From: Nemertoderma westbladi
Lineage: Eukaryota; Animalia; Xenacoelomorpha
DNA: 58,878 nt
Assembly (NCBI GenBank): GCA_032718475.1
Contig: JAUCBJ010007139.1
Span: 1 to 58,878 of the forward strand
Reading direction: 5' to 3'
Below the pieces are notes generated by a model that was not told the origin of the DNA, searched no databases, and saw nothing but the letters and a program-made list of their open reading frames with translations. The position numbers and the translations under genes are program-made. Below are positions 4,571 through 46,148 of the stretch, one piece after another. Within the stretch, counting starts at the first letter, position 1; every line of letters begins with the position of its first letter.

Positions 4571-5197
4571 GTAAGAGTTAGAGAGTTAGTAAGAGTTAGT
4601 AAGAGTTAGTAGGAGTTAGAGAGTTAGGGAATTAGTAGAATTAGAGAGTTAGTAGGGTTAGTGGTAAGAAGTGAGAGGGGGGCACATGGGTACAGCAGAA
4701 CAGACCATGTAGGCCGCATGAGACATACTACTGTACTGCAAAGCCCGTAGAGTAGGTCAGAATGTTTGATACAGGGCCAGGAGGTTACCTGGTGCAGACT
4801 AGCACAGTAAGGAATAGCTAGTCTACCCTGTATGCAAACCATAGACCCCTATAACAAATAGACAAATTAAACCCCTTAAACCCCTTAAACAAATAATCCA
4901 TTATAAGTATTGATAGCACAGTAATAGAATTAAAATTAATATCAAAATTAAAATTCAACAAATTATAGCAACAGTAGGCAGAAAATTCTAGAACATAATA
5001 AAAGTAGCTGACAGATTTAGGGAATTTAGGGAAATTTAGCACTTTAGGGGGTAAATAGGCAAATACAGCAAGAAAACCCACCGTTCTGAGAGAGATAGGC
5101 CATTATCGGACCACACAGACCATCCTAACTACATCACTCACCTATATTGAGCCTTGGCAAGGCACCACCTTGAGGTGAGCGATCGGGAGCGCTCGAA

Positions 5198-7486
5198 ATG
5201 GCGGAGAAACTTGTCAGAAAGAGAAAGGCGGAAATGGGTGGAGAGGAGATACTAGTAGATTTCACCGAGAGGCATCCGGAGGAGAAGATGAGGGGATACT
5301 ACGATCGGTTAGAGAAGGGTCACAAGGTGCGAGCGCTGCAGGACCATTTCAGGGAGGTGCACGAGAGGCAGCTGGTCGGGACCTACGGGACGCCATCGCT
5401 AGACAACGCGATCCTCGAGCATTTCCACTATGTGGTGAAGGGAGACGAGGCGAGGTTCGGGATACCGAAGTATCCGAGGGAACCATAGAGAAAGGACTGG
5501 AAGAGGTTCATAGAGTCCGTCAGCAGGGGAGGATACATGGTCCTGGACGACGAAGGGACTCTGGAAGACGACGAGGGTTCGAGGAGAGGGTCGGCGGCAT
5601 CGGCCAGAACCATACTTCTGCATTTGGCTGCGCCAAATGGGGACATATTCCTGTTTGATCTGGGAACGTATGGGAAGAAGAGCGGGCCGAAGCTAAACCG
5701 GTTGCCAAGGGAAGTGCAGAACGTAGTAAGGGAAAAGATGAAGGTAGGATCGGCGATCCGCGATGATGCAGGGAGGATCATCGGTCCGGAGACCCCCAAC
5801 CTCCTGGACATGCAAATGGTTTACATGGCTATGACAGGGCCAGCCGGGTTGGGACTAGTAGAGAACATAGGACATTGCGGAGCAGTGGTGATGGGCCATC
5901 TAATGGGGCTCGTCTGCCACAAGCTGATGGACTGGGGTAAATTCAGGGAGGAGTACGGAGCGGAGTTGGCGAACTCGCTGAAGTGGGGAGCGAGGCCGGG
6001 GAAACAGGACGTGTATCAATTCCGGAGAGGAGCGATAAAGATATATCAGAAGCGATATATCCTGCAGGAGGATTGGATAATGATAGGTTTACTAAACCTA
6101 TTCATGGCCGTGGTTATTGGAAGAGAGCCAACGGCGTTTCTGCTATCGGGATCACCCCTGAACTACAGAAGAGCCTTCAAAGTGGCCTTCGAGGGTCTGG
6201 CAGACCACCCGGGGCTGAAGGGTGAGTCAGTATACTACAACAGCCGATATCTAGTAGACAGGGAGGTGGATACACCATATCAGAGGTGGGAGAAGCTGGA
6301 GGCGGATAGACTAGAAGAGAAGCGATTGGAAGAAATCGCCAGATGAGAAATGAGGGAGGCAGACGAAAGAGAGGCGGAAGCTAGAGGAGAGGGCTACGGG
6401 TTTGAGGCCCAGGCCTTGGACGATTGGCAGTGGGCATCAGGGAGCTCTGGCGAGTCTCTGGGGCGGGAGTTGGGATGGACGGAAGAATTGCCGAAACAGT
6501 TGACATCTGGATTACAGGCGACGCTCATGCCAACAGGCGCCGAGGGCGATTTCGCAAAGAAAAGGCCAAGGGAACTAGAAGGATGGAAAGTTACGGGCGA
6601 GAGCCAAGGTGGGAAGGAACACAGTGGGTCTACCAGGATACCGGGTTTGGATCCACTCCCAGCGGAGGACGAGGATGATGACGAGTTTGGGGAGATGCCG
6701 CCCATCGAGAGAATCGGCCACTCAGACACGGACTGGGTTGGTGGGAGAGTGGTGATGGCCAGCGGGGCGAGGGCCTTCTGGGATAAACCCGGCAAGTGGG
6801 CCTGGGTGCATGAGGAGCCAGCGATGGATTTCGCGGGGAGCACCATCAGGTTGGGCGAGCAACCGGGAACGGCACCACAGCTAGTGTTCGTAGAGACAAT
6901 GCCGAGGCGAGACGAGGACATAGATATGGACAGAGATGTTAACGTCCAGAAGTTGCGACTGGAAGGACGACGAGGAGAAGTTTAGGATCTTCGAGGAGTG
7001 GGCCGATGACCCGTCATAATGCGGCAGTGAATGAAGGCCCTGGAATTCCGGTGGGGTTTCTTCAATATTAACCAGGAGGCCCACCTGGAAATCATTAAAT
7101 GGAGACTTCTGTTTACTTATCAAGAAGTAGCAACGGCGGCATCGTATGCTGGAGTGATGAATACACAGAGGTATTTAGATAGATGGGCGCCAGAGAACCG
7201 GGGAGAGTTCAGAGATTTCCTGGCGGAGGATGTGATCTTGTGGGATGCTACTAGGGGAAAGCAGCAGGGGCATTCGGAGGGGCCACCTGCGAAGAGATAC
7301 CGGGAGCTAATAACACCAGCGCCCAAGGAATCAACCACGGGAATCAGTAGGGAGGTAACGGCAAGGATGAGGAACCTTAAGGAGGACAAGAGCAAGGAAG
7401 CGGCGACAACCAGGAAGCGACCGAAACAGGACGACAACAGAGGGAAGGAACTGAGATGGTTCCCAAAGACGGGAGGAGCGAAGTAG
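5198..7486 (+). pseudogene. Retrotransposon ORF3: putative DEDDy (WRN/EXD/Mut-7-like) 3'-5' exonuclease protein, ~750 aa, with a few stops/frameshifts
   Basis: ORFs 5198, 5537, 6350 and 7031 share one frame. Motifs: GYMVLDDEG (ExoI DxE), ILLHLAAPNGDIFLFDL, LPREV..KMKVGSAIRDD (ExoII), NLLDMQ, W.ARP, QKRYILQED (ExoIII-like). Confidence 0.72.
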
Positions 7487-8235: not shown

Positions 8236-8852
8236 TGTAATCGGATTCAGTTCCGCTGCATTACCCTCAAAAATGGGAAGTGGCGCATTTTCAGTAATAT
8301 GTTGGAGGTACGAGATTGGCAATAACCAATCTCGTATCACAATCCAACACTGGGGACAACAAAACCCCAAAGCCACACAAAGGGAGGTCAGAGGTCAAAC
8401 CACCTCGGGAGGGAAAATAACCAACAGGGGCCAATGGGGGGGGGGGGGGAGGGGAAGCACTCCCAGAGAGGTGAGAGGCGTGAAGTAGATTATCAGCCAA
8501 TAGTGGCGGGGGAGAGCATCCACTGGATGAAAGACCACAGCAGCATAGGAGTGATTGCATATATTGTCAATACATATTACCATACCGGTTCAGTTACTCA
8601 GTCATCAGCTTAAGTGCAGACCGGTGACATTTTTCTCACCATCACCAAACGTCATCAACATTCAGACACATTGTTATATCAGTATACCGGTTATTCAGTC
8701 ATTGTGCTATTACATATATTATTATACAACACCAGGAGATAACATCGAACTCCCATATTTTCCGCAACAGCCTTGGCCAAACTGCCAGCACCCCTAAAGA
8801 CAACGGTGACGCGTAGTCAATCTATCCGGTCGGGATCCTTGATCCTGTCACA
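8236..8852 (+). repeat. 3' LTR of BEL copy 1 (~617 bp)
   Basis: Starts TGTAATCGGATTCAGTTCC, ends GATCCTGTCACA; both ends homologous to the LTR at 21027->18791, start homologous to 52640. Confidence 0.9.
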
Positions 8853-9490
8853 AAAGTGGAGAGGGCTGCTAAGGAGGTTGGATTGCATATAAATGCTACC
8901 AAGACCGAATTCATGACCTTTAATGTTGATGGAAACTTGACAATCATTGATAATAATCAACTAAGGAAGGTTAATGACTTCCAGTACCTTAGATCATGGA
9001 TAGAGAGTAGCAAAAAGGACATAGAAGTTAGGAAAGCAAAGGCTTGGGCAGCTCTATCAAAAATGGATACCATCTGGAAATCAGATCTCTCCAGGCACCT
9101 GAAGACTAAGTTCTTTCGAGCCATGATGGAAAGTGTATTTTTATACGGGGGTGAGACCTGGACACTGACTAAATCACTTGAACAACGAATTGATGGTTGC
9201 TACACAAGACTACTAAGGGCAGCCCTAAACATCAGCTGGAGACAACACATGACAAACGCCGAGCTTTATGGTACAATACCACCTGTATCAACCACCCTCC
9301 GTGAATGCAGATTAAGATTCAGTGGGCACTGCTGGCGAAGTAAAGACGAGGTCATACCAGATCTACTTCTCTGGCAACCAACTCATGGAAAGCGTACTGA
9401 ATGGACTGGCCATAACATATATAGATCAACTTGAATGGGATACTGAACTTGGGAGAAACGAAATTGCGACAACTATGGAGAATCGGGAAG
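8853..9490 (+). mobile_element. RTE-clade LINE fragment (RT C-terminal/thumb)
   Basis: AKEVGLHINATKT...NDFQYL.SWI...KAKAW...SVFLYGGETWTL...RLRFSGHCWR. Confidence 0.88.
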
Positions 9491-9517
9491 GATCTCATTT
9501 CGACCTAGTAGTTTCGA

Positions 9518-11000
9518 CACTCTCCCGGCCACCCAGTCTGTATCTGAGTGGCCGATCCTCTCGATGGGGGGCATCTCTCCAAACTCGTCGTCATCTTCCT
9601 CCCTTGCTGGGAGTGGATCCAGTCCCGGTATCCCGGTAGATCCACTGTGCCCCTTTCCGCCTTGGCTTCCACCCGTAACTTTCCACCCTTCCTGCTCCCT
9701 AGGTCTCTTTCTTGTGAAATCGCCCTCAGAGCCCACTGGCATGGGCATCACTTGCAATCCCGATGTCGACTGTTTCAGCGATCCTTCCATCCATCCCAGT
9801 TCCTCCCCCAGAAACTCGTCCGAGCTCCCTGATCCCCACCTTAGCTTGTCCAAGTCCTGGGCTTCGAACCCGTAGTCCTCTCCCCTTATGTTCGCCTCTC
9901 TCTCGTCCGCTTCCCTCCTTTCTCGCCTGTCGATTTCTTCCAGCCTCTTCTCCTCGACTCTATTCGCTTCCAGCTTATCCCATCTCTTGAATGGTGTATC
10001 CACCTCTCTGTCTACTTGGTGCTGGCTATCGTAGTACACCGACTCGCCCTTCAGCCCCGGGTGGTCTACCAGACCTTTGAATGCCACCTTAAAGGCTCTT
10101 CTGTAGTTTAGAGGTTCTCCTGATAGCAGAAACGCCATTGGCTCTCTTCCGATAACCACGGCCATGAATAGGTTTAGTAAACCTATCATTATCCAATCCT
10201 CCTGTAGGATATATCTCTTCTGATATATCTTTATCGCTCCCCTTCAGAACTGATACACCTCCTGTTTCCCTGGCCTTGCTCCCCATTTCAGCGACTTCGC
10301 CAGCTCCGCTCCGTACTCCTCCCGGAACTTACCCCAGTCCATCGGCTTGTGGCAGACGAGCCCCATGAGCTGACCCATCGCCACTGCTCCGCAAAGTCCT
10401 GTGTTCTATACCAATCCCAACCCGTCTGGCCCCATCATGGCCATATAGACCGCTTGCATGTCGAGGAGGTTGGGGGTCTCCGGTCTGACGATCCTCTCCG
10501 CATCGTCGCGGATCGCCGATCCCACCTTCACCGTAGTCTTCTCCCTCACAAGGTCCTGCACCGCCCTTGGCAACCGGTTTAACTTCGGCCCGTAGTAATA
10601 TGGTTCTAGCCAATCCCACTGATCCTCTTCTCGAGCCCTCGTCGTCCTCCTCAGTCCCCTCGTCGTCTAGGACCATGTATCCGCCCCTACTCACAGACTC
10701 TACAAACCTCTTCCATTCCTTTCTTGGTGGTTCCCTTGGATACTTCGGTATCTCTCCCTTCACTACGTAGCGAAAATGTTCAAGGATTGCGTTGTCCAGC
10801 GACGGCGTCCCATAGGTCCCGACTAGTCGTCTCTCGTGCATCTCCCTGAAGTGGTCCTGCAGCGCTCGCGCTTTGTGACCCTTCGGTGGCGGCTTGTAGT
10901 ATCCCCTTGTCTTCTCCTCTGGGTGCCTCTGCGTGAAATCCACTAGTATCTCCTTTCCACTCCTCTCTGTCTTTCTCTTCTTAACTAGTCTCTCCGCCAT
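9518..11000 (-). pseudogene. ORF3 (DEDDy exonuclease-like) of BEL copy 2, internally deleted and 3' truncated
   Basis: MAERLVKKRK...SRGGYMVLDDEGT and IGLLNLFMAVVIGREP...HSDTDWV match copy 1 ORF3; a deletion near 10593 shifts the frame. Confidence 0.8.
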
Positions 11001-11614
11001 TACAAACTTCCTCGCACTCTCACCTTATTAGTGGTGCCTTACCAAGGCTCAATTAGATGAGTAACATCTAATGGGATAGTCTGTATTTGTTCAGTAATGG
11101 CCTATCTCCAAGAAACCTTAATTTTATGCTGTATTTTTAAGTATACGTCCCCCAAAGTGCCAATTTCCCTAAATTTTACAAATCTGTCCGTTACTTTAAT
11201 TATGATTCTAGAATCATTTGCCTACTGTTACCATAATTTATTAAATTTTGCTCTTAATACTATTTTATTCTCTCTTAGTGTGCTAATATCGGTTGTGGCG
11301 GGTTATTTCTACTTAGATAACCCCTGTAGTTTGTATACAGGGAAAACTAGCTATTCTCTACTGTGCTAGCTTTGTACCAGGCAACTTCCTGGCCCTGTAC
11401 CAAACATCCTAAACTTACTCTATGGGCCGTGCAGTACAGTAGTCTGTCTCGTGCGGCCTACATGGTCTATCCTGCTGTACCCACGTGCCCCCCTCTCCCT
11501 TTCGTGGTGCTCTCAATGTCCACATCCTCTACGGTACTACGTACCCTACTACTAGTCTTATGGTATACCTATATACCATACTCTTTACTCTCTTACTACT
11601 AACTTCTATTAAGC

Positions 11615-13812
11615 CTATTTTGCCGTAGCGTCCTGCGCAAGTTCTATTCCCACCGCTCTTGTGTTGTTGCTGACGAAGATAATGCCTTAGCGTTTCTCCG
11701 TGTGCCGCATCACCTTTATCTTAATCGGCTTGAACATGTCCATGCCGCAGTGCGTGAAGGGTGGGTTGTGTTGTCTCACTCTATTGGCCGGTAATGGCGC
11801 CATCTCCTATACGGCCCTCTCCTTTCTTGTCCGTCGGCAGGTCTGGCACTGCCTCACTACCACCTTCACCTTCTTCCTAAGTTGGGTGATCCAGAACATT
11901 CTTCGTATTTCCGTGAGGGTCTGATTTGAGCCTCCGTGTAGTATCGATTTATGTGAGTCCCAAATGATCTGGTGGACTATTGGTGATTTATTGGGGATTA
12001 TTATGGGCTTCGGTTGGATAACTAAGCTGTTGTTATTCACCACTCTGGAATTCATTACCAGAATCCCGTCGTCATTCAACTGTGGGGACAGCGTGTTGAG
12101 TTCGCTGTCTCGACAAAGGTGTTGTTGCTTGCTGACCCTGTCCACTTTGTCGGCGTACTTCTTTCCTTGCTTGTATCGTATTACGGCTTTAGCCGCTCCT
12201 TCCAGATTGACGGTTGGTTTCCTTTTGGCATCCTTGCCAAATCCCCTAAGGAAATCCCCGTAGGCCCTCAAATATGCTACCAACTTCTTAGTCTTATACC
12301 AGCTCGAGCTGTAACTGAGCAACCTGTCCATCGGATTATCACATGGTTCTTCTGATTTCGGTGGCACTTCCTTGATCTCCCTCACCATCTGGCTGTATAT
12401 CTCTTCCCCTTCTGAATCCTCCCCCTCCTCTTCTGCTACTACTTCCGCTGAGCCCGGGTCCACCTTCCTCATTGGTGGCCAGGCTGATCTATCATTCAGG
12501 AAGTGTGGCCCATGCTGCCACAACTCTTCCTTCTTTGAGAAAGTGTGGCGTCCCATGCCCCTCGATAACAGATCTGCTGGATTGTCGTCGGTAGGGCAGT
12601 AATGCCACCTTTCTAGGTCAGTCATCGCCCTTATCTTGTCTACCCTATTCGCGACGAATATAGGGTTATGTAGCCATCCGCCACACTAGCACTACCATGG
12701 AGTCCATCCAGCAGTGTGTCTCTACTATGTTGGGTATAGTATCCATCAAGTAAGCTGTGGCCCTTACTCCTAACCTCGTAGCTGTCAGCTCGAGTTTCGG
12801 GACTGACGCTGAATCTGGTGGCGTCGACTTCGCTTTACTAAATGCAAGTCTGGGCTTATGAGCCCCCTTTCGCTGTACCAAATAAAGTGCCGCTCCATAT
12901 GCTTCCAAAGATGCATCGGAAAACATGTGTAGATCCAGGTCCGTCATGTCTCCGTCCGGGAAATACACGCATGGCATGCTTTACATCCCCATCTGCTCTA
13001 GACTCCCCATCCACTTACTCCACTGTTTACTTATTTCTTCCGGTGCCTCCGTATCCCACGCATCCTTTAACTTGATTACTTTCTTTAGTATCTGCTTCCC
13101 CATGACTAACAATGGGGATGCCAGGCCTAGGGGATCGTATATCCTTGCTATGTATGATACATAGCCCCGCTTAGTGTGGATCTCTGCACCCTCTTGTCTC
13201 AGTTGATACTCCAACTCGTCCGTTTCACGGATTCACACGATCCCTAGCTCCTTCTTTGCCCTCTACCGTATCTCACACAGCCATAGTCGTTGTAAATGAG
13301 GACGAATTGGCCCCTATGTGTTGCAACACCATTTTGTACATCGGAATCACAGACGGTTCTTCATCGCCGTTGTACCATAGTAAGCGCAGACTGTCGCTGT
13401 CCTCTTCCGTCACACAGACTTGGTTGAACATGCCTTCAATGTCGCACGTGAAGGCATGCCTCCCATTTCTGAATCTCAACAGGACCTCTATTCCCGAGTT
13501 ATAGATGTTGGGGCCCTCCGGCAGATAGTCGTTTAGGCTCTTGCCATTCGTTTTGGCCGATGCGTTGACCACCATCCGCAGTTTACCCTTCTTTGGGTCG
13601 AAAGCCACGTGCAGTGGCAGATAGTAGGTTCTGTCCATGTTTGGCTCGTCGACCGGTAACTCCACGGCCCATCCCTTCTCAACGTATTTCCTGATCGTTC
13701 TGTGGATGTACTCGTCCTTCTCGGGGCTCCGTTTGAGTGTCTGCTTCAGTTTGCGAAGCCTCGTGAGTACCATCCCTTTGTTATCTAGCAATGGTAGTTT
13801 TGGTTGTTTCAC
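11615..13812 (-). pseudogene. BEL/Pao pol (RT with catalytic YxDD region deleted, RNase H, integrase Zn finger and start of core)
   Basis: ORFs 13273-13812, 12981-13214, 12666-12977 and 11807-12625; sequence jumps from 'GANSSSF' to the 'KELGIV' region; 'PFTHCGMDMFKP' near 11750, truncated ~11615. Confidence 0.92.
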
Positions 13813-16800
13813 ACCATTCCTATGGTGTACTTCATCGACTCCTTTACGCTCTCTATAGCTTGTTTATCTTCTACCAAGGTTCTGACCCCGGCCTCCTTCA
13901 ATCCTTCGAAGTCCTGCTTCAGCAGCCTCTTAAGCTGCTCCTCTGCTCCTTCGTCCCCCATCTCCCTCATTGTCCCTGCGAACATGCACCCTGATGTCTC
14001 CGACACCCTGAGTGGAATTTTGGTTTTAATTGGGCCGCTAAGCATCCATCCGAATGGTGTGAGAATCGCCATCACATCGCGCTGCCTGTTCTCTCCGAAT
14101 ATGGTCCATACTCTCTCGTGGGCTGTCGGACAATCCATTCCCACTATGATGGATACCTTCAAGACATCCACCTCCGGTATTGAGAAATCGATATCGTCCA
14201 GGAACCGGTATTGCTCGACCTCAATCATAGTGGGTCGCCTGGCGTTTATATTAATCGATTCTATTATCCGAATGGGGTCAATGGTCGCCCCATAATCACA
14301 TCCTGGTGCTATTGCTGATATCTCGCACCTTCCCATCCTCATCTCCAGGACCGCATCCTTGCTCGAGATTGTAGTTACCGCCATCCTACTCGGCCTCGTC
14401 TGTAATCTTATCTCCTCGGCCACCCAATTCTCCACCAGCGTGAAGGCTGCTCCGCTGTTGACCAGCATTGGTGTCGTAACTGATCGACCGCTTTCTCCCA
14501 TCACCCTCACCGGTACCACCCCGAGTAGTACCGTTCCCCTTCTCTTCGCTCCTATGGTGCTTGTCGCCATTGTTTGGCCTTTGCCTTGACCGAATTTTAT
14601 TGGTGTCTCCTTACACTGTTCAGCTCTATGTCCACCTACCACACATCGATGACAGATTCCACTTTTGTTCGCATATTCTTCCTGATCTTGTTTGGGTAAC
14701 GCCTGCCAATACTTGCAGTTCATGGTCTGATGGAGTGCGTTCGAGTGTAATTGGCATTTGTTTCTCAGATTATAGCATTCCCTATACAGCGCATTACGTA
14801 TCGCACGTATATTCATACTTAGCTGTCTGGCGTTCTTATTATTTGGGTTTGGCCTACTGGGCGTGTTGGGGTTATATTTGTTTGTGTTATTATTTTGTCC
14901 CTGTTCATGCCACGGTGTGGCCCTACCCCCGGCTATCTGTGGACTAGCAGTCCCCTGCGTCGTCACGTATGGTAGCGATTGTCTCAACTTTGGTAACGCA
15001 TTTGCCGTACTATGTTCTGGTTTCGGCCTGTTATATTCGGTCTTCGGCGCCCTCCCCAGACTATCTTCGCTGTAGACTGGGTCCGTGATTAGTTCTGCTT
15101 CGTAATTGAGGAAGTTCGACATTTCCTCTAGGCCCAGTTCCACACCTTTCTTCTCCCGGGTTGAGAAGGTGATCTTCCTCCACTTATTTCTTAGCCAGAT
15201 TGGCAGTGCCTGTGCTATTGTGGTGATGTTATTCACTGCGTTGAGTTCATAAGGCGCATCCAAGATCTTCAGCACAATCAGCGCCTTTTCGACTTTATTT
15301 GCGAAAGTCTTGATGTTACCACCTGATGTTATTCCCCTCAAGGTTTGCCGGATGATCTTGGCAGGGTGTCCAAATTCCCTGTCTAGGGCCCGCCATGCAG
15401 TCGTGAATCCACCCTCGATACACCGATACTGCCTTACGATATTGTACGCTGGGCCCCCTGTGTAAACTTGTAAATATTTTAGGCACTCGGCCTGTGTCAG
15501 GTTCTTTGTCAATATTTCATTACTGTACATACGTCGGAATTTCAGATATTCTTCCAGCCTGCTTCCATCGAATTTGAACGGCTCCACTGGTGGCAGCTCG
15601 ATCCTGGTCTTAAGTGCATTGATGAGTGTTGCCATTCCCATCGCCTAGTACTTCTAGTGGGCTCGATGGATGCTGTACAGATTCCCCTGCTGCTGGGTGC
15701 GGCTCGCCCGTCGACCTCTTCTGCGTTGGATATATCATTGGGGTTAACGGTCCCCTCCATATCACTGTGTCACATGATTTATTTTGATCCAAGGGGTTCG
15801 GGGTTTTTGTTCTCGGTTGAGTGTATTGCTGATATTGTAATGGGGGAATATCACCCTGCCCCCCCCCCCCCCCACCCTCCGGTGTTATATTTGGTATTGG
15901 TGTTGATGTTACCATGTTAGGGCCCATACACCTATCGGCAATAACTCCCCCCTCCCCTGGGTATATGTTATATCCCTGCATATTATAGTCATACTGGTGT
16001 GCAGACCTATCGGTATGTATGCCGCGACTTCCGGATCTAATCCCATTGTTCGCGCTACCCTATCGCCTAGACTATCTCTTCCAGCATGGCCTATAGTATG
16101 TGCAGTAAAGCCTACAGTATGTCCTGCAGTCTGGCTGTGTCCTTCCGGACCGAAGTTTAATCTTCTCGAATATTCCAAGAAGTCCTCCCCATGACTACCG
16201 TACTCTCGATCGACAGCTATATCCTGTCGGGAAGTTTCTCTTCGATCCTATCTCCTGTCCTCGTCCTCGCACCGGTACATCCTGCACCCTTCTCGCGGTG
16301 TGTGGTATATCTCACCAGGCTGCATCTCTCCGGGGCACGGCAATCTCCCGGAGTTCGACCCCACTGACTCTCTAACTCCATCTCTGCTACCGACGGTTCA
16401 CTCTCCGTCCTTCCTCTCCGGTTGCTCGCAGCAACGCTTCTTCTATTCTCTTCACTTCTTCTCTCTTCAGTGTAGAGATCCCCTTCGTGAGATCTCTCTT
16501 CGACCTCCCGGATAAACTCCACTGTTCTTCTTCTGTCTTCCGACTGGGCTCGACGTCTTGTCGCTTGCCCGCTCACAGCGCCAACCTTTCTCTCTCTACC
16601 CAGTTGGACGCTCCTGGGGATACTCGCAATCCCCCTACTATTCTCTGTCGTCGGGTGTCGTGGTTCACCTAACTCGCCCCGCGCATTATCTGCCGACGCT
16701 TGTGGGATATTCTCTGCCCCCCCCCCCCCTTCTGGCCACTAATCTCTCGTGGTGGGGTGCCCGTAGCCCCCCCCCCCCCCCCCCATCCGCCACCTCTTAC

Positions 16801-18723
16801 TTCGCTGCCTCTTACTTCACTTCTATACCCCTCTCTAGTCGACGCACTATCTCTACTCCGGCTGGGTCTACTCACCCCTGCCTCTTCCTGTGCGACTGCG
16901 TGGCCTTGCAGGCTCCCGTCGGGTTGACTCACCGCCGCTACTCCCTGCGTAACTACATAGCCTTGTAGGCTCCCGTTGGCCGGGCCATCTGCCTCCCCTG
17001 CATCCGTATTAATTGCACTGTTATTCGTAACATTATTATCTAAGTTATTTAAATTATTTAAATTATTTTGTTCAGAATTAGGGTTATTATTTGGAATATT
17101 TTGTACATTTAAATTAGAATTATTACTTAGGTTATTTTGCACATTTAAATTAGTGTTATTTGGAATATTTTGTATGTTTAAATTAGTATTATTTGGATTA
17201 TTTTGTACATTTAAATTAGTATTATTTGGATTATTTTGTACGTTTAAATTAGTATATTTGGATTATCCATATTTGGATTATTTTGCACATTTAAATCAAA
17301 ATTATTATTGCCGGGTAAAATATTATTTCCTGCAACAAAGGTTTGATTAGGGTTGTCTACTACGGTACTATTAATATTAATCCCTTCTAACGTATTAATA
17401 TTACCCCCCCCCCCGTCCGTCCATATGGTTACACCAGTCCTGGGTCTGTCGCCCGGTGCCTGTAAGTGGGGTATTAACAAACGTTTGCATTACTTCTGGC
17501 TCCTCGTAAACGCTACCCGAACCAGCCTCACTCTCCGATAATCCCAACTTCGCCAGTTCTAACCGGCGCTTTTGCTTCGCCTGGTATTGCATAAGTCCCC
17601 TTAACTGGGTATGCATATCATCCCGCATACCCTTTCCTGCTCTCTCTCTCTCTCTCTATCCTCTCTCAAACTTTGGTCGGCCAACTCTGCCTATCTCGCG
17701 ATCCGCTCTTTGTGCTCATTTTCTACTTTCGCCTCCCGTTCCTCGCACTCTTTACGCTCACTCATTTCTCTTTCCTCCCGTACCCTGCAGTTTCTCGCCA
17801 CCCTCTCGGCTCTCTCTCTACATTCCCTCGCTAACTCTCTCTCTTTCTCTAATAACGCGGTTCCCTCATCTAGTTGCCTCTCCAACTCCTTCTGATCCAG
17901 CGCCACAAGGTCTAATTGGCATGCCAGATCTATCTCTAATACCCTTCTTGCTTTTGCGGAGGATGTAGCAGACTTATCGGTCGCGACGGACTCCCGTCGC
18001 CTATCTGTCCTACTAACTTTCCCCCGATTTCTGGGGTTCTCGCTGACTGACGACACCGAATCCTCGGGGTTAACCTCAGGTTCGCTGTCGTGCCATCCCA
18101 CTAATTTAATTCCCCTTGCATCCACTATAATAAGGCCCTACGTACACTACGTCTGGCTCCATTACCCCGGACCGCCACAATTCAAACAGTTCCGTGGCGA
18201 CCCCCTTTGCTCTCTAACTCGCCAGTTCTCCCTGTCCAAAATGGACTAAATAGTGAAAATGTTTATTCGACTCATCTATCCTCTGATATAGTTTAGGCTA
18301 GTCTACCTTTCTCCTCTCCTTGGCCTCTTTAAGTAGTTTCTTGGTGGCGTTGTAGGTCCGTTGTAGTCGATCACTTGTCCCGACGTCCTCTTCGTCGACT
18401 CCACCTCCTCTCCTTGTCCGGTGTCGTACCGGTGGCCCCACCGTTGCCATTCCGGTGGGCCGTCCGTCGCCATTGGACTGTGGCTGGCCGGCGACTTCGG
18501 TACTCCGACTGCTGTCGTCGTCGCGCATCGACTCATCTCCCTCTCTTCTACGTAGTTGACGGTCGCCCTCCGCTTGGGCTACCGGATCGTCCCTCGTCGG
18601 CGAATCCGGTGTGGCAGGCTGATACTGTCGAGTCACGGCCTCACGGATCATTTGATTGGTGTCATCCGGAGTCCGCGGCGGCGTTCTCTCTCCCTCTGAT
18701 AATCGGGGCTCCCTGTCGCTCAT
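13809..18723 (-). pseudogene. BEL/Pao gag-protease of copy 2 (long N-terminal part with coiled-coil and Asn-rich repeats; frameshifted)
   Basis: ATG 18723 MSDREPRL; E/R coiled coil 17640-17900; capsid/knuckle/PR ORF 13809-15641 (protease Asp mutated, LVNSGA). Confidence 0.9.
17020..17330 (-). repeat. 33-bp coding repeat (NLNVQNNPNNT) within gag
   Basis: Plus-strand unit TTATTTGGATTATTTTGTACATTTAAATTAGTA repeated; homologous Asn-rich tract at 1-180 in copy 1. Confidence 0.85.
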
Positions 18724-18790
18724 CTTCCTGTCTTTGAAGTCACAGTTTGTTAGTTGTAGTAGGTGAGTTTATGACTCAGCAGTTTATGAC

Positions 18791-21027
18791 TGTGACGGGA
18801 TCCTAAGATCCCGACTGGGTTAGATTTGTAGGCGTCACCATTCTGCTGGGCAGTTGTACTGGGTTTGGCCAAAGGCCATCGAGGAAAAACAATAGAGTTT
18901 CTGATTCTCAATGTTTATACTCCAAGCGATAATAGCACAATCGGTAAATCATTTTTTTTTTTTTTTTTTTTTTTGGAAAGTACTAATTTATTACACCCTA
19001 ATATAATCTGACATTAATTGATATCTATAATACATCACAAACCTATCGGCGTAAATGTTATGGATACACTATCTCATCGCATACTATTTAACGCAATCCC
19101 AGCCTCGGCTACAGCCGCGCTCACGCCGGTCTCCCGCATCGTCTGTCTCGTTGCCAGCCTAGCCTTCGGCATCCGTGCACCCCTGAGGCACATGATAGAG
19201 GAACGGAGGAGGGCGAAACTCAACCGAGTCCTGATGAGGGAGAGAGTCTGCGAGTAGGGAGCGTCCTGTTTCGCCAACAGTAGGAGCGCGATGCGTGTGA
19301 GGAGCGCGTGGGCTGAGCGGCTGGCCCCACCAGTTGTAGCAATTACAAAAAGGCGAGAAGCCGGCGTGCTCGACGTCATTGATTCTCTCCTCATACTTCC
19401 TCCATTTCTCTCGCTCATGTTTGCTGTACCCATGTACTCATGTGCAGCATCCATGGAGCGAGGATTGGAGGAGCACAGAGGATTGAATACCTTGACGTCG
19501 ATATACACCCGCTCGAAGCGCCCACCCCACAGCCCACTCGCCGCAACGTCCAGACGGGCCTCCGGGTCTACCGTAGCAGATCTCAGGCGGAATGACTCGC
19601 CCTCAATCGGCTGGAGATGGGGTTCCACCTCGACGTCGTGTGCGACCTCGCTGAGGAGCTCGGCGAGGCAATCGCGGACCTCGTTGTGCCGCAGGATCGG
19701 GTAGGCTCCCATAGGGCAGTGAAGGGAGTGGGAGATGGTGAATACAGCACCGCAGGAGCAGTTGGCGGGCAGCCTCGGGGGCTCCCACCCAAATCGCAGA
19801 CACAACGCATCCCGGAAAGCGGATTTGTGTAGGGAAAAGTTGTATCTGGAAATGGGTAGGGCCAAGAGCCATGCCGACGCTCCACGCTCCTTCGCCAGTG
19901 TCTGATGGTAGAGGGCGTCTCCGGACAGTTGAGCATCAACCGCCACACATCGAGTCTTCACAGCCTCATCCTGCTCCTTGCGGATCTCACACAGGATGGT
20001 CTGCTGTATTGTACGAGCGGCTGGGTCCGAACACCGTAGGGGCTCGCAGAGTCGCAACGACTTCTCGTAGCTTTCCACCTCATCCTGAGGTTGATTTATT
20101 GCTAGCCCCCCTCCCTCACAGGGAGTGCCAGCAGCTGTCGTTCCGAAAGGCCAAGTGGGTATCTGCCAGTGAGTGTCGGGATGACTGTGCTGGAGAGCGT
20201 TTCCTCAACTCGATCCAAGTGACCGACTAACCCGGGTGTGGTGCGAGCCAAGAAGTTTACCTTCGGCTGTAAGCCACGGACCAGGCATCTATACGCAGGG
20301 TGGGGAGCATTCACTGCGAAATCGTTGAGGTGTTTTAGTTGGCGACAGATGACGTCAACTCGCTTCTCCAGATACCCAGCACAGTAGGATGTGGACCCTA
20401 TTACGGACCCCAGGACTCGATGACCATCGACCACTTCAACAGGGAGGCCAGAGAAAATCGCGTTGGCCTCTTCGCGCTTTGAGTTCTTCACAATAAGAAA
20501 TGCCTTTGTAAATCAAAGGCGGTAAATCAGTGATATCATGGTAAATTGGTAACAGCAGAAAATACACAGTAATATATGATGTTAGTGGCGGTGACGGTCA
20601 TAAACTATGACCAGTCTGCAACTGAGTAACTAATGAACTGACTGGTAAATCAGTAGTGCAGAATAATAAATGATTAACACACACGGATATTGATTTCACC
20701 TCTTACTATACTTGGCCCTCTGTACCCAGTGGATGCTTTCCTATCTCTAATCACGTGCTTCCCTCCCCGCTATTGGCTAATATACTAATTGTCACTTTGG
20801 CACTCCCTGTGAGTGTTTTCCCCCACTGGCTGTATTCCCTCCAAGGTGGTTTGACCTCTCACCTCTCTCTGTGGCGTTAGGGCTTGTGTCCCCCCCCCCC
20901 CCCCCCCCCCCCAATTTTGGTTATGAGGCGAGATTAATATTGGTAATTTCGTATCCCCAACTTATTGGTAAAATGCCACTGGTCCCATTTTCTAGTGGGT
21001 AATGAAGTGGAATTGAATCCGCTTACA
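18791..21027 (-). repeat. 5' LTR of BEL copy 2 (~673 bp), split by a CRE-like LINE
   Basis: Sense TGTAAGCGGATTCAATTCC (21027) ... GATCCCGTCACA (18791); pieces 18791-18951 and 20516-21027. Confidence 0.9.
18952..20507 (-). mobile_element. CRE-like non-LTR retrotransposon (restriction-like endonuclease), 5' truncated, poly(A) tail, 8-bp TSD
   Basis: RGASAWL.ALP, CSCG..HSLHC, RHNEVRD, RLDV...YIDV motifs; T23 at 18952-18974; TSD GTAAATCA at 18944-18951 and 20508-20515. Confidence 0.88.
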
Positions 21028-24567: not shown

Positions 24568-25021
24568 TAATTAGGGTAATCAATTAGCATTAGACAGCGG
24601 GAAATTTGAGTGAAATACGAATGAAATATAGTTAAATAAACCTGGACCGGTTGGTGGTAGCCTATATATATCAGTATAATAGGCCTACTGTATAATGGTA
24701 GATTTAATATTGTCATTGTTTACTGTTTTAGTTTTAGCAAAGTTATTGGTTTTTTATTATAGCATTAGTCCTCAGAGTTTTCAGTACAGTATACTGGTAT
24801 AATCTGAAGTAAATCCGCTATACAGTAGTATATAGCCTCCAGACTTGGTAATACCAGAATAGAATGCAACAATATAACGGCACCAGTACAGTCTGACAGT
24901 ATTATTATTATTGTTCTGATAGAACCATGAATCATCCAGGTTTGCCAGATTTTTTATTTACTTATTATATTCATTCAAGAAGCTAATCTCTATATCAATA
25001 TTTTTTTCTTTGTTTTTGCAG

Positions 25022-28000
25022 ACTACTCAACATTATTTCTACCTGTTCAAGAAGCAATTGATTTCGCATGTATTGGTGAAATAAACTCACACACTACACC
25101 AAATATAATCATTCAATTCGTTCAAAATCCAATGCCTGCTAAACCTGTGTACTCTGGTATTTCGATCATAATACAACCATTCTTGACAATTCTGTTACTA
25201 TTGATGTCATTATATACATCTGTTAACATTATCCGAAATATTGTTCATGAAAAGGAACTCAAGTTAAAAGAAGCAATGAAGATTATGGGTCTCGATCCCT
25301 GGTTTCATTGGTTGGCATGGTTTATACATTATGCAGCACTTTTGATGCTTGTTAACACTATTGTTACATTATTTTTATGCTTGGATATTAAAGTCGCTAT
25401 GCTCGGAAAAGCCCACTGGAGTGTTGTATTTATGTTTTTAACACTGTATTCACTTTCTAATATTTGTTTCTGCTTTTTCCTAACAACATTATTTTCTCGT
25501 TCCAAAACTGCGACATTTGTTGGCACATTTCTTTGGTTACTTTCATATGTTGTATTTGAAATTATCAACAACACAGTTTATGATCAAATGGCCTTAGCAT
25601 CAAAACTTCTTGTTTGCCTTTTACCTAATTCGTGTTTTGCAATTGGTATTCAAGCAATGTTCAAATGGTACAACAGAGGGCCAGGAAGCTATTGGCAGAA
25701 TTTATCATATGAATTAGAAGCTGGTTCAGATACAATATCATTGCTGGCGGTGTATATGATGTTATTGTTTGACTGTTTCTTCTATTGCGTTTTGACCTGG
25801 TACATTTCTAATGTTTTCCCAGGAGAATTTGGTGTGTCCATGGAATGGTATTTTGCTTGCTCTCCATCGTACTGGTGTTCAGCTGATTCAAAGGCGATAT
25901 GTGATCTATCTGATCATAATTTAATTTCTGACTATTTTGAAGAAGAACCATCTAATCTTGTAGCTGGAGTACATGTAAAGAAACTCTCCAAAATGTTTAG
26001 AAACCTCCCTCGGCCAGCTGCTGATGATGTCAGTTTTAATTTATATGAAGGACAAATAACTGCTCTACTGGGTAAAAATGGAGCTGGTAAAACTACTACC
26101 ATATCCATGCTTACTGGTATGTTTCCTCCATCAAGTGGAACTGCTCTTATCAACGGACATGACATTCGTACTGATATGAAAAAAGTACGTAAGAGTTTGG
26201 GTTTCTGCCCTCAACACAATTTATTATTTGATACCCTCACAGTGAAAGAACATTTAATCTTTTACATTTATCTTAAAGGAATTTATGATAAGGCAACAAT
26301 TTCATCTGAAATTGCTAACACCCTATCTATGCTTCAACTTGAAGATAAGATACATTCTCGTTCAAAATCTCTTTCTGGTGGAATGAAGAGAAGGTTATCT
26401 CTAGGAATCGCTTTTATTGGTGGATCAAAGACAGTATTCTTGGACGAGCCAACAACAGGATTGGACCCAGCAGCTAGAAGATATGCATGGGATTTTATTC
26501 AACAACAGAAAGTTGGAAAAACTATTTTACTAACAACCCATTTCATGGATGAAGCAGATTATTTAGGTGATAGAATTGGAATTATTACAAATGGAAAAAT
26601 GCAATGCTTTGGAACTCCTATGTTTTTAAAACGTAAATATGGAGTAGGTTATCACTTGTCTATTGTAAAAACAACAAACTGTGACATCAATAAATTAACT
26701 TCCACTGTTAAGTCTATTGTTCCAAATTCATCTTTAAGCTCAAATGTGGCTGCCGAACTTATATATACACTGCCCACTAACCAACGTCTGAAGTTTGCAG
26801 ATTTATTTACAGAAATAGAAGAAAATAGAGATAATTATGGAATCGATAGCTATGGTGCTTCACTTACTACTATGGAAGATGTATTCCTAAAAGTTGACCA
26901 ACTAGCCACTCAACAGTTATTACAAGAAGAAAATCTGCGTGTTAATAACTCAAAAGAATTTGTATATTTTACAGAACGTGCCTCTTCAGTTCGAACAAGT
27001 AACAAAAGTGCAGATGATTTTCAAACCGCTCAATCTCATACATCAAAAATTAATAATAATACAAACGTAGAAATGGAAATAGAATTGAAAACTGTTTCAA
27101 GTGGTTATGGAAATCTACATGGCAGTAAACTTCTATTGCGTCAAATGCATGCTATGCTCATGAAACGTTTTATTTATTCATTGAGAAATCCATCAATATT
27201 GATTGCCCAATTTGCTATTGTTCTTATTACTATTGCGTATATTCTGATTAACAACAATATACCAAAATCAGAAGGAAAAACTTCTACATCGCCTAGTCGC
27301 GCAATAGATTTATCTCAATATGGTTATACACATGCGTTTTATCAGATAACTGAAACAACAAAGCGATTGCCTGACTTAAAGAATATTGGGGAATCATATG
27401 AAATATTTCTACGCAGTAAAGGTGTTACAGTTGAAGAGGTTCGAGATCTAAACAGTTCTTTATTTAAGGCGATGGAACAAAATTTTGGATATTATGTGAA
27501 TAATTTCATTGTTTCAGCAAAGTTTGATATTTCAAGAATTCCTGCAGAAGTTACTCTTTATTACAACGGCCAAGCAATCCATTCTGAACCACAATCATTA
27601 AATGCGTTCACTAATGCACTTTTACATGCCACTTCATCAGATAAAAGCATGTCCATTAAAACAATAAATAAGCCTTTAGAGGTAGATACATATGGTTATT
27701 CAAATAGTGAACGGACAGATGATTATGACCTAACACAAGGCATAAACATTACACTTTTACTATGTTTAATTAGTGGAACATTCATCTATTTTATTGTAGA
27801 AGAATGCACATCGAAGTCCAAGCAGATACAATTTGTTTCTGGTGTCAACCCCTTTATCTTCTGGGGATCTAACTTTATATACGACTTCCTAACATTTATT
27901 GTTATTGACATCCTGATTGTATTACTTGTTGTTGCGGAAGGCTCTATGGGACATTCATCTAGTCTTGGATATATATTTATCTTCTTAGCTGCTTTCTCAC

Positions 28001-29463
28001 TATGTGCTTTACCAATGATGTACTTCCTACAGTTACTGTTTAGTGTTCCTGCACGGGCTGTAGCAGGTTGCTGTTTTATAAATGTTTTTATTTTCATTTT
28101 TACAACTTTGGTTATTGAGATCCCCATCCATATAGAATCATATAAATTACGTGAACGTCGTATTTTTGAAATACTTTATCGTAATACAACAATTATTCCA
28201 ACATACAATTCTTATACAGTTTTAAACCGAATTTACTTTATGAACCATGTCCATAATTTTGATAACATACTACAGTGGGAAAAACCTGGCATTGCTCAGG
28301 ATATTTTTGTTATGATATTAGAAGGGTTGTTATTATTTGTTATATTAGTTGCCATTGAAACTGGGTATTTCAGAAGATTTGAATTGTTCATCTTTTCAAC
28401 ACTTTTGAAGAAAAAATGTTTATTGCCACAGACCTTTATAGATGAAGATGTAGCCAATGAAATGAATGCAATAGATGCTTTAAGAAGTGATAAAAACAAT
28501 GTTGTGATTCTAGACCATTTGTGTAAAAAATACAGTAACTGTTGCAACCCACCCATTGTAGCTGCAAATAATCTTTGCTTGGCTATTCCTGCTGGCGAAT
28601 GTTTTGGACTTCTAGGTGTAAATGGTGCAGGTAAAACAACGACATTTCAGATGATAACAGGGGACATTTTAATGACCTCTGGCACTGTTTATTTGGGTGG
28701 GTTTAACATTCGAAACCAATTAGAAAGAGCCCAACAGCTGATAGGGTATTGTCCACAATTTGATGCTTTAATAGGTCAAATGACTGCTTATGAAACACTG
28801 CAGATGTTTGCTAGACTTAGAGGAATACCAGAGTGTGACATTCACCAAATGTGTGTTGATATAGTTTCGGAATTCACATTAGGGCCGTTTGCAAACAAAT
28901 TATGCAAAACCTACAGTGGTGGAAATAAACGAAAATTATGCACTGCCGTTGCAGTGATTGGTAATCCCCCAGTCGTATTTCTTGACGAACCAACATCTGG
29001 AATGGATCCTGTCTCCAAGCGTTCAGTTTGGAATGCGCTTTGTAGAGTTCGTGAAAAGGGAACATCCATAATAATTACAACGCATAGTATGGAAGAGTGT
29101 GAGGCACTATGCACGCGATTGGCAATCATGGTAAGAGGTAGTTTCAAATGTTTGGGGTCGCTTCAACATCTAAAGTCAAAGTTTGGCCAAGGGTATTCTG
29201 TCATGGCGAAAGTTAATACGAAAGGCGCAAGTTGTTTTGAAGACATTATTGTTTTAAAAGAATTCTTAGAGTCAAAGTTTCCTGGTGCTGAATTAAAAGA
29301 TGAACACCAGGGGATTGTAACATATCGAGTTACAAATAAATCAATAAAGTGGTCTGACATATTTTCATCAATGGAGGAAGCGAAAGAACAATTTAATTTG
29401 GAAGATTATTCTGTCACACAAACAACCCTTGAAGATGTATTTTTAGGATTTGCCGAAACCTAA
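25022..29463 (+). CDS. ABCA: ABC transporter subfamily A (ABCA3-like), terminal coding exon with TMD1-NBD1-TMD2-NBD2; N-terminal exon(s) not in view
   Basis: IVHEKELKLKEAMKIMGL; GKNGAGKTT/LSGGMKRRL/VFLDEPT; GVNGAGKTT/YSGGNKRKL/VFLDEPTSG; SVTQTTLEDVF. Polypyrimidine + TTGCAG acceptor ends at 25021 and the frame reads YSTLFLPVQEAID upstream of the annotated ATG 25132. Confidence 0.96.
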
Positions 29464-30113: not shown

Positions 30114-31698
30114 GCTAGTTAGAGTACTACGTATTTAACGAAAAACTGCAATCACTGACTGAATGACCGGTACCGGTTACAAGGCTACATTACAAATGTT
30201 ATATATAGAGCCAAATATATCTATATACTGTATAGAGCTAATCATAATGATATGTAACCGAAATAATTATAGTTTTAATGGGCAGTGATTTTTTATGTCC
30301 TTTTATTGACTTTTTTTGTCCTCCTTTTTTTACAAATTGTGCATAATGACTTTTGAGTACCAATGAGTACCCAAGTCCCAAAAAGTGGGTTCACCATGAA
30401 AGTTTCAATAATCCAGAATATTTAAACTCACCAGTCAGCCCTCATTTGCGACCTATAAAGGTTGGCAAACGTACATGATGGAAATATTTTCCAGACAATA
30501 TTGTTGATGTGCGATGTGGTACATGCTACAGTACTTTTCATCACTACTTGATTTTCTTTATACAAAATATATATAATGCCACGACAAGGTTGAAAAATCG
30601 ACCCACTAATTTTTTGGCCTTGCTGCCATTTGGCAGGCCGTATTTAAGTAGGCCATGGGTTTCCACTAATGTTCATTATCTTTCAATAACAGGATATTTT
30701 TACTTTATGTTTAATTTATTTTTCTAATTTGTTATTTATTGGATTTGTAATTGCACCACTGAATTATATTGGAAATAATAACGTTCCGTAGGCCCTATTT
30801 GAATAACTTTCTATAAAAATAACATCGCTTGTATTTCGCTGTCCGCTATCCTGTTTAACTTGCTTAGGTTTACTCAGACTCTCTTCGCTAACACGTTTAC
30901 CCCCCTGTTGCTATGTAGTAAAGTTTACCGATAGCAACCGGATGCCGTTCCTGTGGCAACACGAGTTCCAACATGTAGGAGGGTTGGTCTAACAATACGA
31001 CCTTTTGGCCGGCCATAAAATAAATTGTCAATAAATAAATTGTAGGTCTTAACAAACGCCCGATACACGGGAAAATAAAATTCATATTCGTATTTAATCC
31101 AGCATCATCGTCCCATTGATTGTTGATTAACAGTCCCAGGTTATACTGTTCTGTAGTTATTAAACTTGATGACTTTCTAATCTTTCAAAACTCTGAAAAG
31201 GAAAACTAGGACAAACTGCATTAAGTTATATTTTAAATTAAATATCTCATTGAATTGTCTTATTTGATGTGTTGCTATGGCATCGATGACTACTGTAAGT
31301 TGAATAAATACAAATAGATAAGGGTCTTCCCCAACGGTAAAAAATAATTGAATTAATTTAAGTGAGTACTTTCTGGCCTAGGCCTTTCTTCAGACTCTAT
31401 ATAAATAACTGAAACACTACACACGAAACCGAACTGTAAAACCACACTGCACAACAGCAAATAACAAAGTTACCGGTACCTCTAAAGTATGTATTAGGAT
31501 AAGGCACATAGTGGGGCGAGCACAAAATAGGTGGTACTATATACTTGCATATATCATTAGACGGGTATAGCGAAAAATCATAAAAATATGGAGATATAAA
31601 CAATTTCTATCTATTTACACTATTATAAATCGGTGGTTTAACAATTTCTAACTATTTACACTAAGGAATTACAAATCGATGGGTTAATAGTTAAATAG

Positions 31699-32634
31699 GT
31701 TAAATATACTGGTGAATATTCTTATAAGAGTTTAGATTTTCTAGATACTACCATTTCGGTAGAAGATAATATGCTTAGGATATCACCGTTTATTAAACCC
31801 TGTAATAACAAATTACCTATTCATTATAGTAGTTCCCACGATAAAGTGTCACTTATTAATATTGCTAAATCCCAATTACTAAGATATTATAGGCTGTCGG
31901 ATACACCAATAGTTTACAAACAATTTAAAGATAAATATCTCCATGGTTGTATACTACAAGGTTATCCAAAAGCAACCATTAATTTACTCTCTAATTGGAA
32001 GCCATTGAATAAACAGCATAATGACTTTTCATCCCTTAATACGTTTTATTTACCGGTGCCTTTAGCTTTCAAACTAGTTATCCGTAAGACATTTGTAGAA
32101 TTTTCTTCAGTTTTAAAAGATCTTAATATTTTATTTTCAACTAAATCAACCCCTAATATTGGTAACATGTTGTGTGATAAGAATACTATTCCAATCACCT
32201 TACCACAAGGCAACTCAGCTTACACTACGAGAGGGTGCCTCACGTGTAGTATGATCGATCCGGGAGTCGATTCAACACCATGGGGAGACCCAATCCTTGG
32301 ACACTTTAACTGTAGATCTAATAGGTTAATATATTTCGCTTGGTGCAATATACATAAGGACCAGTACTATTTAGGACAGACCCTGCAGCGCCTACATCTG
32401 AGACTTAATGGACATAGGTCTAGGATTCGTAATTTTGTGTTCTCAGACGATCCCGATTCCACTTGTCCGGAACCAGAACAACTTTTACTGGAACACTTTA
32501 ACCGGTGTACATTAGACAACCTTAAAGTTGTAGCATTTAAGGACTGTAGAGACGACCTCCAACGCTTATGTGTTGAAAGTTACCTGATTAATAGTTATAG
32601 GCCCCCATTAAATAAAATATTGCCAGCGTTATAA
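31699..32634 (+). CDS. Penelope RT C-terminus/thumb plus GIY-YIG endonuclease (partial)
   Basis: VKYTGEY..LDFLD, CLTC, FNCRSNRLIYFAWC..YYLGQT..LHLRLNGHRS, EHF, VESYLI..PPLN. Confidence 0.9.
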   Translation, partial: VKYTGEYSYKSLDFLDTTISVEDNMLRISPFIKPCNNKLPIHYSSSHDKVSLINIAKSQLLRYYRLSDTPIVYKQFKDKYLHGCILQGYPKATINLLSNWKPLNKQHNDFSSLNTFYLPVPLAFKLVIRKTFVEFSSVLKDLNILFSTKSTPNIGNMLCDKNTIPITLPQGNSAYTTRGCLTCSMIDPGVDSTPWGDPILGHFNCRSNRLIYFAWCNIHKDQYYLGQTLQRLHLRLNGHRSRIRNFVFSDDPDSTCPEPEQLLLEHFNRCTLDNLKVVAFKDCRDDLQRLCVESYLINSYRPPLNKILPAL

Positions 32635-33008
32635 ATACAGTAGTGTTGTCTATTGGATCTTTGTGTAATATAGTTGTAAATATTATATGTAAATAAAACA
32701 CAATTTTAATATGTACTATTAACCCATCGATTTGTAATTCCTTAGTGTAAATAGTTAGAAATTGTTAAACCACCGATTTATAATAGTGTAAATAGATAGA
32801 AATTGTTTATATCTCCATATTTTTATGATTTTTCGCTATACCCGTCTAATGATATATGCAAGTATATAGTACCACCTATTTTGTGCTCGCCCCACTATGT
32901 GCCTTATCCTAATACATACTTTAGAGGTACCGGTAACTTTGTTATTTGCTGTTGTGCAGTGTGGTTTTACAGTTCGGTTTCGTGTGTAGTGTTTCCGTTA
33001 TTTATATA

Positions 33009-33046
33009 GAGTCTGAAGAAAGGCCTAGGCCAGAAAGTACTCACTT
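33009..33046 (+). ncRNA. Minimal hammerhead ribozyme in Penelope pLTR (mirror copy ~31360-31397, minus)
   Basis: GAGT CTGAAGA a-aggcctaggcc-a GAAA GTAC TC ACTT; palindromic AGTACT stem III. Confidence 0.65.
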
Positions 33047-33177
33047 AAATTAATTCAATTATTTTTTACCGTTGGGGAAGACCCTTATCTATTTGTATTT
33101 ATTCAACTTATGATGGACCCCCTAACAGCAGCATGTCGCTTTGTTTCATGACTACTGTACAATTACCACCCAAATAC

Positions 33178-40718: not shown

Positions 40719-40720
40719 TC

Positions 40721-41022
40721 TTTGGTGGATATGGTAGTGATCGCTATCATACATGACCTCGTCTATAGTTTCATCCTTTCCTCTCCACTATCCAGCTTTC
40801 CATCAATGTGAATGCTGCCCCACTGTCAATCAACATCAGTGTTGTTACTGATCGCATGTTTTCCCGATCATCCTTAGTGGGACCACTCTGAGCAACACTG
40901 TCCGTCCCTCACTTCTTAAAGTTCACCATTGTACTCGCCATTGTTTGACCTCCATTCGCGTTTTTCAGTGCTCGTTCTCGATACCAGTCCTTTCTACTGT
41001 ATGTCATCCTACTCAACATCTA
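40721..41022 (-). repeat. Inverted duplication of 39226-39527
   Basis: ~300 bp reverse complement with only a handful of mismatches. Confidence 0.92.
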
Positions 41023-45776: not shown

Positions 45777-46148
45777 GGGGCGATTGCGGAGGGGGGGGGG
45801 GGGGGGGGGGGGGTAGGGGTGAAACACAAAAGTATGGCAGCTACCGAATTAAGAAAAGGATAGCTAGTGGGCTACAAATGATAGCAGCACGGGTATTGCC
45901 TCAATGTATGGTTAGAATGTAACCTAACTAACTGACTAACAAAATTATTACAGTCTACATATTATTGTAAATCTTACATATAAGAACTAAAGCGATATAT
46001 ATATAGTATATTGGACCCCGTATGTGTTATCAGGTTTGGGATTTGGAACTGCAACCTCCCCGGCACCGGTACCGGTACCATGGATCGAAGAACGAGGTGA
46101 TCGACGGAGAGGAGGATGTCATCCGACCTTGCCCAAGTTGCTGGTGGC

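Follow-up and report, generated by a model that had tools for sequence, protein, structure and literature searches.

In the animal Nemertoderma westbladi, a divergent BEL/Pao family of LTR retrotransposons appears to prime its minus-strand DNA with RNA encoded contiguously in its own LTR, a reading whose probability we put at roughly two in three (0.68); self-priming of some form we regard as likely in this family. The mechanism would be a variant of a known one, here in a superfamily described as tRNA-primed. The central observation comes from copy 2 of the family, in which the 10 bases directly after the 5' LTR, GTCATAAACT (18790-18781, minus strand, and again at 18775-18766), are the exact complement of AGTTTATGAC within the LTR (20606-20597). 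The initial annotation had described this complementarity and the lack of a tRNA-type primer-binding site (PBS), and both descriptions hold: every sequence that it quoted is in place, and there is no TGG within 90 bases after the LTR. The same self-match is present in many related elements.

The window, by which we mean the whole 58,878-nucleotide stretch of DNA analysed, is rich in repeats and contains three copies of the LTR family (Table 1), all of them broken by stops and frameshifts; neither a 3' LTR of copy 2 nor a tRNA gene was found in it. Pfam recognizes DUF1759, an aspartic protease and an integrase zinc finger in the family, and its reverse transcriptase (RT) piece has 13,477 protein matches at an E value of 0.001 or better. 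Because all 10 of the long RT-matching polyproteins tested carry the BEL/Pao domains Peptidase_A17, DUF1759 and DUF5641, and because the best matches are about 32-46% identical, the family is BEL/Pao and divergent; among 10 RT-match clusters looked up, the two that were named belong to the nemertean Lineus longissimus. A gag-protease search gave no homologue inside its length range, the LTR-end pattern had no match in metagenome contigs, and the RT alignment had none in viral contigs. The ICTV describes BEL/Pao elements (Belpaoviridae, Semotivirus) as having an 18-nt PBS complementary to the 3' end of tRNA-Arg or tRNA-Gly and their replication as poorly understood (PMC8742986). The window element shares with them a DUF1759 gag, BEL/Pao-type pol in the order PR-RT-RH-IN, TG...CA LTRs within the range of 0.2-1.2 kb (here about 0.66 kb) and a purine tract ahead of the 3' LTR, but it lacks the tRNA PBS. 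Its membership rests on its proteins, which are not those of the Ty3/gypsy chromoviruses that define the Tf1/sushi group, and the ICTV statement on the PBS fails for elements without TGG.

Other repeats surround and interrupt these copies. The RTE-type piece in which copy 1 ends continues upstream in other copies in public contigs, so copy 1 has likely inserted into it. A 1,510-codon open frame at 24931-29463 (plus strand), ABC transporter A-like by eye, has no apparent introns and lies among repeats. A 396-bp inverted repeat pair (99.7%) at 31296-33110 encloses a 311-codon ORF with a weak GIY-YIG match, which we take to be Penelope-like, and a 302-bp pair (98%) at 39226-41022 lies inside BEL/Pao gag-like fragments of a more distant family. 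Additionally, the minus strand at 42522-48555 carries an endonuclease-RT frame of 1,108 aa with a 257-aa ORF upstream, probably a near-intact CR1/L2-type element, which adjoins an unclassified 510-aa ORF.

The position of the candidate PBS depends on where the LTR ends. The end at ...GTCACA, which the initial annotation had taken from copy 1, is set by alignment with the 3' LTR of that copy (8236-8852) and confirmed by public contigs from this organism, in which similarity stops just past it. Since a 1,568-bp poly(A)-tailed insertion accounts for the 1.8-kb span, the LTR proper measures about 660 bp. The insertion contains a Cys/His motif and a restriction-like endonuclease motif, from which we presume it to be CRE-like; it has no Pfam match.

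Table 1. Features of the LTR family and of adjoining repeats in the window
Feature	Position	Strand	Remarks
Copy 1	window start to 8852	+	of its LTRs only the 3' LTR (8236-8852) present
Accessory ORF of copy 1	5179-6985	+	broken by stops
3' LTR of copy 1	8236-8852	+	after purine tract; equivalent primer site 8629-8639
RTE-type non-LTR piece	8853-9434	+	copy 1 ends directly in it
Copy 2	5' LTR from 21027, internal region to about 9480	-
Internal region of copy 2	9480-18723	-	broken gag-pol (DUF1759, aspartic protease, RT, integrase zinc finger) and broken accessory ORF
Second copy of the PBS 10-mer	18766-18775	-	15 bases downstream; alternative folding partner
Candidate PBS	18781-18790	-	directly after LTR; without TGG
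5' LTR of copy 2	18791-21027	-	about 660 bp LTR, TGTAAG...GTCACA, split by nested insertion; aligned with copy-1 3' LTR and copy-3 LTR
U5 terminal hairpin	18796-18813	-	CGGGATC-TTAG-GATCCCG, 7 bp; present in copy 1 too
U5 arm	18833-18839	-	GGTGACG, 42 bases before LTR end; heptamer same in copy 1
Insertion in LTR of copy 2	18952-20519	-	1,568 bp, 5'-truncated, poly(A)-tailed, non-LTR-type; 10-bp target duplication (20529-20520 and 18951-18942)
R-side arm	20590-20596	-	CGTCACC, directly 3' of primer site; predicted pair probability with U5 arm 0.92-1.0
Local hairpin	20596-20612	-	7 bp; overlaps primer site; competing structure, absent from two-strand minimum-energy folds
Predicted self-primer site	20597-20607	-	10 Watson-Crick pairs (20606-20597) and one G-U pair (20607) with post-LTR bases
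Candidate start region	20619-20671	-	Inr-like TCAGT motifs (A at 20639 and 20623), AT-rich stretch upstream
Copy 3	from 52640	+
LTR start of copy 3	52640-53020	+	deletion from about 53020 into gag removes primer site, U5 and PBS
RTE-type non-LTR piece	53655-55290	+	interrupts gag of copy 3

How often would such a match arise by chance? In dinucleotide shuffles of the LTR, a match of at least 10 bases occurred at offset 0 in 21 of 20,000 cases, which is near the figure of about 1 in 1,500 given in the initial annotation, and at offsets 0-3 in 76 of 20,000. The match agrees with the rule by which self-priming has been predicted in plant elements, i.e. at least 10 bp of complement located 0-5 bp after the LTR (as given in the part of PMC6317226 drawn on here). 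With 10 Watson-Crick bases it is one base below the usual 11 of the relatives described below, which counts against it.

Folds were predicted for the R piece together with the U5-leader piece, each entered as a separate strand, under several assumed transcript starts. For starts at 20606, 20607, 20640 and 20650, the predicted folds contain a 10-bp primer duplex (11 with the G-U pair), an adjacent R-U5 helix of 7-8 bp and the U5 hairpin; in other words, the CGTCACC/GGTGACG pairing and the hairpin that had been proposed are in place and form in the models. For starts at 20612 and 20624, the primer site is predicted to pair with the second repeat instead, which counts against the proposal. For a start at 20606 the pair probability of the first repeat is about 0.6 and that of the R-U5 helix 0.92-1.0. 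Self-priming in the Tf1 group reportedly requires a U5 stem-loop, and in the window element both this feature and the R-U5 helix of Tf1-type priming are present in the predicted folds. As for the repeat itself, the PBS 10-mer recurs at 15-base spacing within 18761-18790 (minus strand), and the extra bases of the first unit are complementary, with gaps, to the bases upstream of the primer site; this gapped complementarity could be a trace of over-copied primer RNA.

We propose that the genomic RNA would fold back on itself, with LTR bases 20607-20597 paired to the PBS and the seven that follow paired to U5, and that a cut just 3' of the paired bases, after 20597, would free a 3' end for minus-strand synthesis within the particle. 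By analogy with Tf1, the cutting nuclease would probably be the element's own RNase H. A start at 20606 itself, in the manner of Tf1, is doubtful, since an Inr-like TCAGT sits about 35 bases before the primer site: the motif is found at 20639 in copy 2 and at 8592 in copy 1, with an AT-rich stretch about 30 bases further upstream, and these motifs suggest that the transcript begins at the TCAGT. Whereas the primer of Tf1 is the first 11 bases of its transcript, the primer of the window element would then be a 5' fragment, about 43 bases long, that ends inside the transcript. It looks contiguous in the LTR, with no intron needed, whereas most relatives examined match only across a predicted GT-AG junction; the family looks intron-less because a strict splice-site search found no junction in the window element and because the corresponding position of copy 1 lacks an AG.

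Copy 1 does carry CATTTTTCTCAC at 8628-8639, the site to which the initial annotation had pointed. Five of the 11 primer-site positions distinguish copy 1 from copy 2, whereas the arms beside the site are conserved, a pattern that counts in favour of the proposal. Over the aligned U5 the two copies are 74% identical (107/145) with the U5 heptamer unchanged; the R arm of copy 1 has a single change (A to G at 8641) that is missing from other copies in public contigs. The post-LTR counterpart of the copy-1 primer site was not recovered in public contigs of the same organism, and it counts against the proposal that only one decayed copy, copy 2, has both the LTR site and the PBS. One copy-1-like contig (runs X1 and X2) also weighs against it: this contig runs on beyond the LTR end, and what follows there lacks the predicted complement and is unlike the leader of copy 2. 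At about twice the depth of the shallowest contigs it looks like a single locus, and the simplest reading is the flank of a 3' or solo LTR; possibly it is a 5' LTR that fails the prediction, i.e. a counter-example. Another contig (X3) departs from the LTR at 8784 into leader-like sequence, apparently through deletion of the PBS.

Controlled tests come from more distant relatives, 117 loci related in RT (35-46% identical to the window element), of which 80 are from metagenomes and 37 (L081-L117) are BEL/Pao loci on contigs filed in bacterial or archaeal assemblies. These filings point to animal host DNA contaminating the assemblies. Twenty loci were inspected for repeat pairs, and 11 had an LTR end fixed by the divergence of both copies, making 12 anchored elements with that of the window; those dropped were L015, L032 and L035 (end not in both repeats), L094, L096, L097 and L101 (other repeats), and L039 and L046 (no clear LTR end in the repeat). 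In five of the 12 (L041, L091, L092, L105 and L111) a TGG site occurs within 7 bases, and matches to the element's own LTR do not exceed 6 bases; four of these sites are nearly identical in sequence and presumably of tRNA-Tyr type. Among the seven without TGG, the window element has its 10 contiguous bases and five match their own LTR only across a canonical donor and acceptor (L021 over 15 bases, L022 over 12, and L031, L086 and L087 over 11 each). The seventh, L083, counts against the pattern, scoring only 8 (11 with one mismatch by eye). In swapped pairs, matches of at least 10 occurred once in 132, between the sisters L087 and L086, and of at least 11 not at all (0/132); shuffled sites gave at least 10 in 11 of 3,600. 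Additionally, in the sister families L086 and L087, two of the three paired, last exon-1 bases differ, as do both partner bases in the PBS, i.e. two compensatory changes. By these tests the self-priming reading of the initial annotation is strengthened, although two of its parts fare less well: the start at 20606 is doubtful, as noted above, and an R-U5 helix of at least 5 Watson-Crick pairs is found in only 3 of 14 relatives (at most 4 pairs in the other 11), so that this helix is clear in the folds predicted for the window element and not general.

Several relatives differ in detail. L010 and L015 have no TGG and show, by eye, a contiguous self-match of 9 bases with one G-U pair beside an Inr-like motif, which falls under the 10-base rule. 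In L022 (6626-6662) and L087 (1327-1355) the donor follows a TATA-like motif by only about 28-36 bases, and exon 1 could be shorter than 10 bases, with the spliced primer near the 5' end of the RNA; in L021, L025 and L082 the corresponding distance is 100 or more bases.

A wider, unanchored scan covered 83 loci, with 34 of the 117 excluded for having under 500 bases to scan. Junction matches of at least 11 bases were found in 13 of the 83 and in none of the 83 reverse-complement controls. The 13 do not count as so many independent new cases, because the splice-site patterns were fixed once the first examples were known, L020 is nearly a copy of L022, and L086 and L087 are included. TGG-type sites were found in seven scanned loci and in eight related loci overall. 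Contiguous matches in 36 of the 83 were set aside as mostly chance, their LTR ends not being fixed and there being no control; a junction match in L097 was also set aside, as it may belong to another element: the RT of L097 is 4.7 kb away and clusters with those of tRNA-type elements. The layout of the window element, with a PBS starting GT at offset 0 and a primer ending AC, is common to L017, L027, L045, L053 and L085, and L078 has a contiguous 11-base match with no acceptor, its LTR end being deduced from its terminal inverted repeat. A quick RT tree of 113 rows puts the window element, on a long branch, into an 86-row group that holds 22 of the 23 rows labelled self-matching (the five contiguous labels there are tentative) and one of the eight tRNA-type rows. 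A tree of RH/IN left the placement of the window element unresolved; this uncertain placement and the low RT identity of the relatives count against the proposal. The 13 best RH/IN scores among 28 labelled loci all belong to self-matching types. On balance we lean slightly towards a history in which a large BEL/Pao branch of marine invertebrates dropped tRNA priming, most of its members obtaining an 11-15-base self-primer when the host splices out an LTR intron, and members such as the window element and L078 having lost the intron, which leaves the primer ready-made.

Could the window element itself be one of those that splice? The 10-mer reads AG followed by TTTATGAC, and an acceptor AG at 20606-20605 joined to an upstream GAG/GT donor would give a joint that pairs over 11 bases with the second repeat (18775-18765), a length that a loose search indeed returns; L017 and L061 share this layout, with an exon ending in AG. 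The strict search that found no junction speaks against such splicing, as do the want of a pyrimidine tract at the acceptor and of the AG in copy 1. The 11th base, moreover, would fit any GAG/GT donor with a chance of about 1 in 4, and 15 bases separate the second repeat from the LTR end. We therefore consider a spliced primer in this family quite unlikely.

That the match is due to chance, or is a by-product of local duplication in a decayed copy that is really primed by a host RNA (a whole tRNA, a piece of one or some other RNA) with its site unrecognised or lost, is also unlikely. Such an account draws on the single copy, the 15-base tandem repeat in the PBS region, the tRNA-Arg or tRNA-Gly priming given by the ICTV (PMC8742986), the eight related loci with TGG-type sites, and the loss of the PBS by deletion in copy 3 and apparently in another copy. 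It must contend with a chance of about 0.1-0.4% to which the adjacent 7-bp helix is added, with closest-scoring relatives that are self-matching types, and with a leader of about 67 bases (the first ATG after the LTR of copy 2 is that of gag, at 18723) that resembles those of roughly 80 bases in L027 and L082. The initial annotation had itself offered an alternative, namely that GTCATAAA, which we take to be a Hox/Cdx-type motif, is a repeated protein-binding site; a relative of this idea is that the pairing serves as a regulatory switch in the RNA and has no part in priming. The 8-mer does occur three times within about 200 bases of the uninterrupted LTR, and a competing local hairpin exists, but the site is not kept in copy 1, the match reaches 10 bases and abuts the LTR end exactly, and the element would be left without any primer site, all of which make this alternative weak and highly improbable.

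The broken accessory ORF we presume, by its motifs, to be exonuclease-like. It had no Pfam, PDB or homologue match, its single-sequence structure model has a pLDDT of 41, and no counterpart was found in the 117 related loci; the exonuclease label of the initial annotation has thus gained no database support. Like the window element, LTR elements of rotifers carry an extra ORF between pol and the 3' LTR, the DEDDy exonuclease ORF3 (in the part of PMC5408684 drawn on here), and the spacing of acidic motifs is similar by eye, with no profile or sequence match for the window ORF. Because no relative carries the ORF, it is not needed for the self-match signature.

Among known systems, the BEL-group element Cer7 of Caenorhabditis elegans has reportedly been suggested to supply its primer itself, as a distinct tRNA-like RNA encoded in the 3' region, unlike the LTR fold-back of the window element. 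Self-priming of the kind proposed here is known in Tf1 and Tf2 of Schizosaccharomyces pombe, of Tj1 and of the Tf1/sushi group, which are Ty3/gypsy elements. The plant lineages Tcn1 (gypsy) and TAR, Houba and Osr-1 (copia), for which the 10-bp rule gave its predictions, belong to other superfamilies and hosts, and a junction-built primer does not appear in the part of PMC6317226 drawn on here. A literature search, with supplementary PBS tables, subscription papers and Repbase outside its scope, found no report of self-priming in BEL/Pao and nothing in print on a primer assembled at a splice joint that links host splicing to the start of reverse transcription; further literature drawn on, in part, comprised PMC7175516, PMC4600332, PMC554778, PMC3118150, PMC8220671 and PMC5443660.

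A self-priming BEL/Pao branch would have several implications. Self-priming has been demonstrated for Tf1, a few gypsy and copia lineages are predicted to use it, and BEL/Pao would be the third LTR superfamily in which it occurs. Such a branch would bear on whether fold-back or tRNA priming originated first, a question raised in the part of PMC3601003 drawn on here, and it would explain why PBS finders miss these elements. If the relatives do splice their primers from an LTR intron, a splice-joint primer would tie host splicing to the start of reverse transcription, making the latter depend on the former. The proposal specifies, down to the single base, the splice joint, the cut site and the RNA joined to strong-stop DNA.
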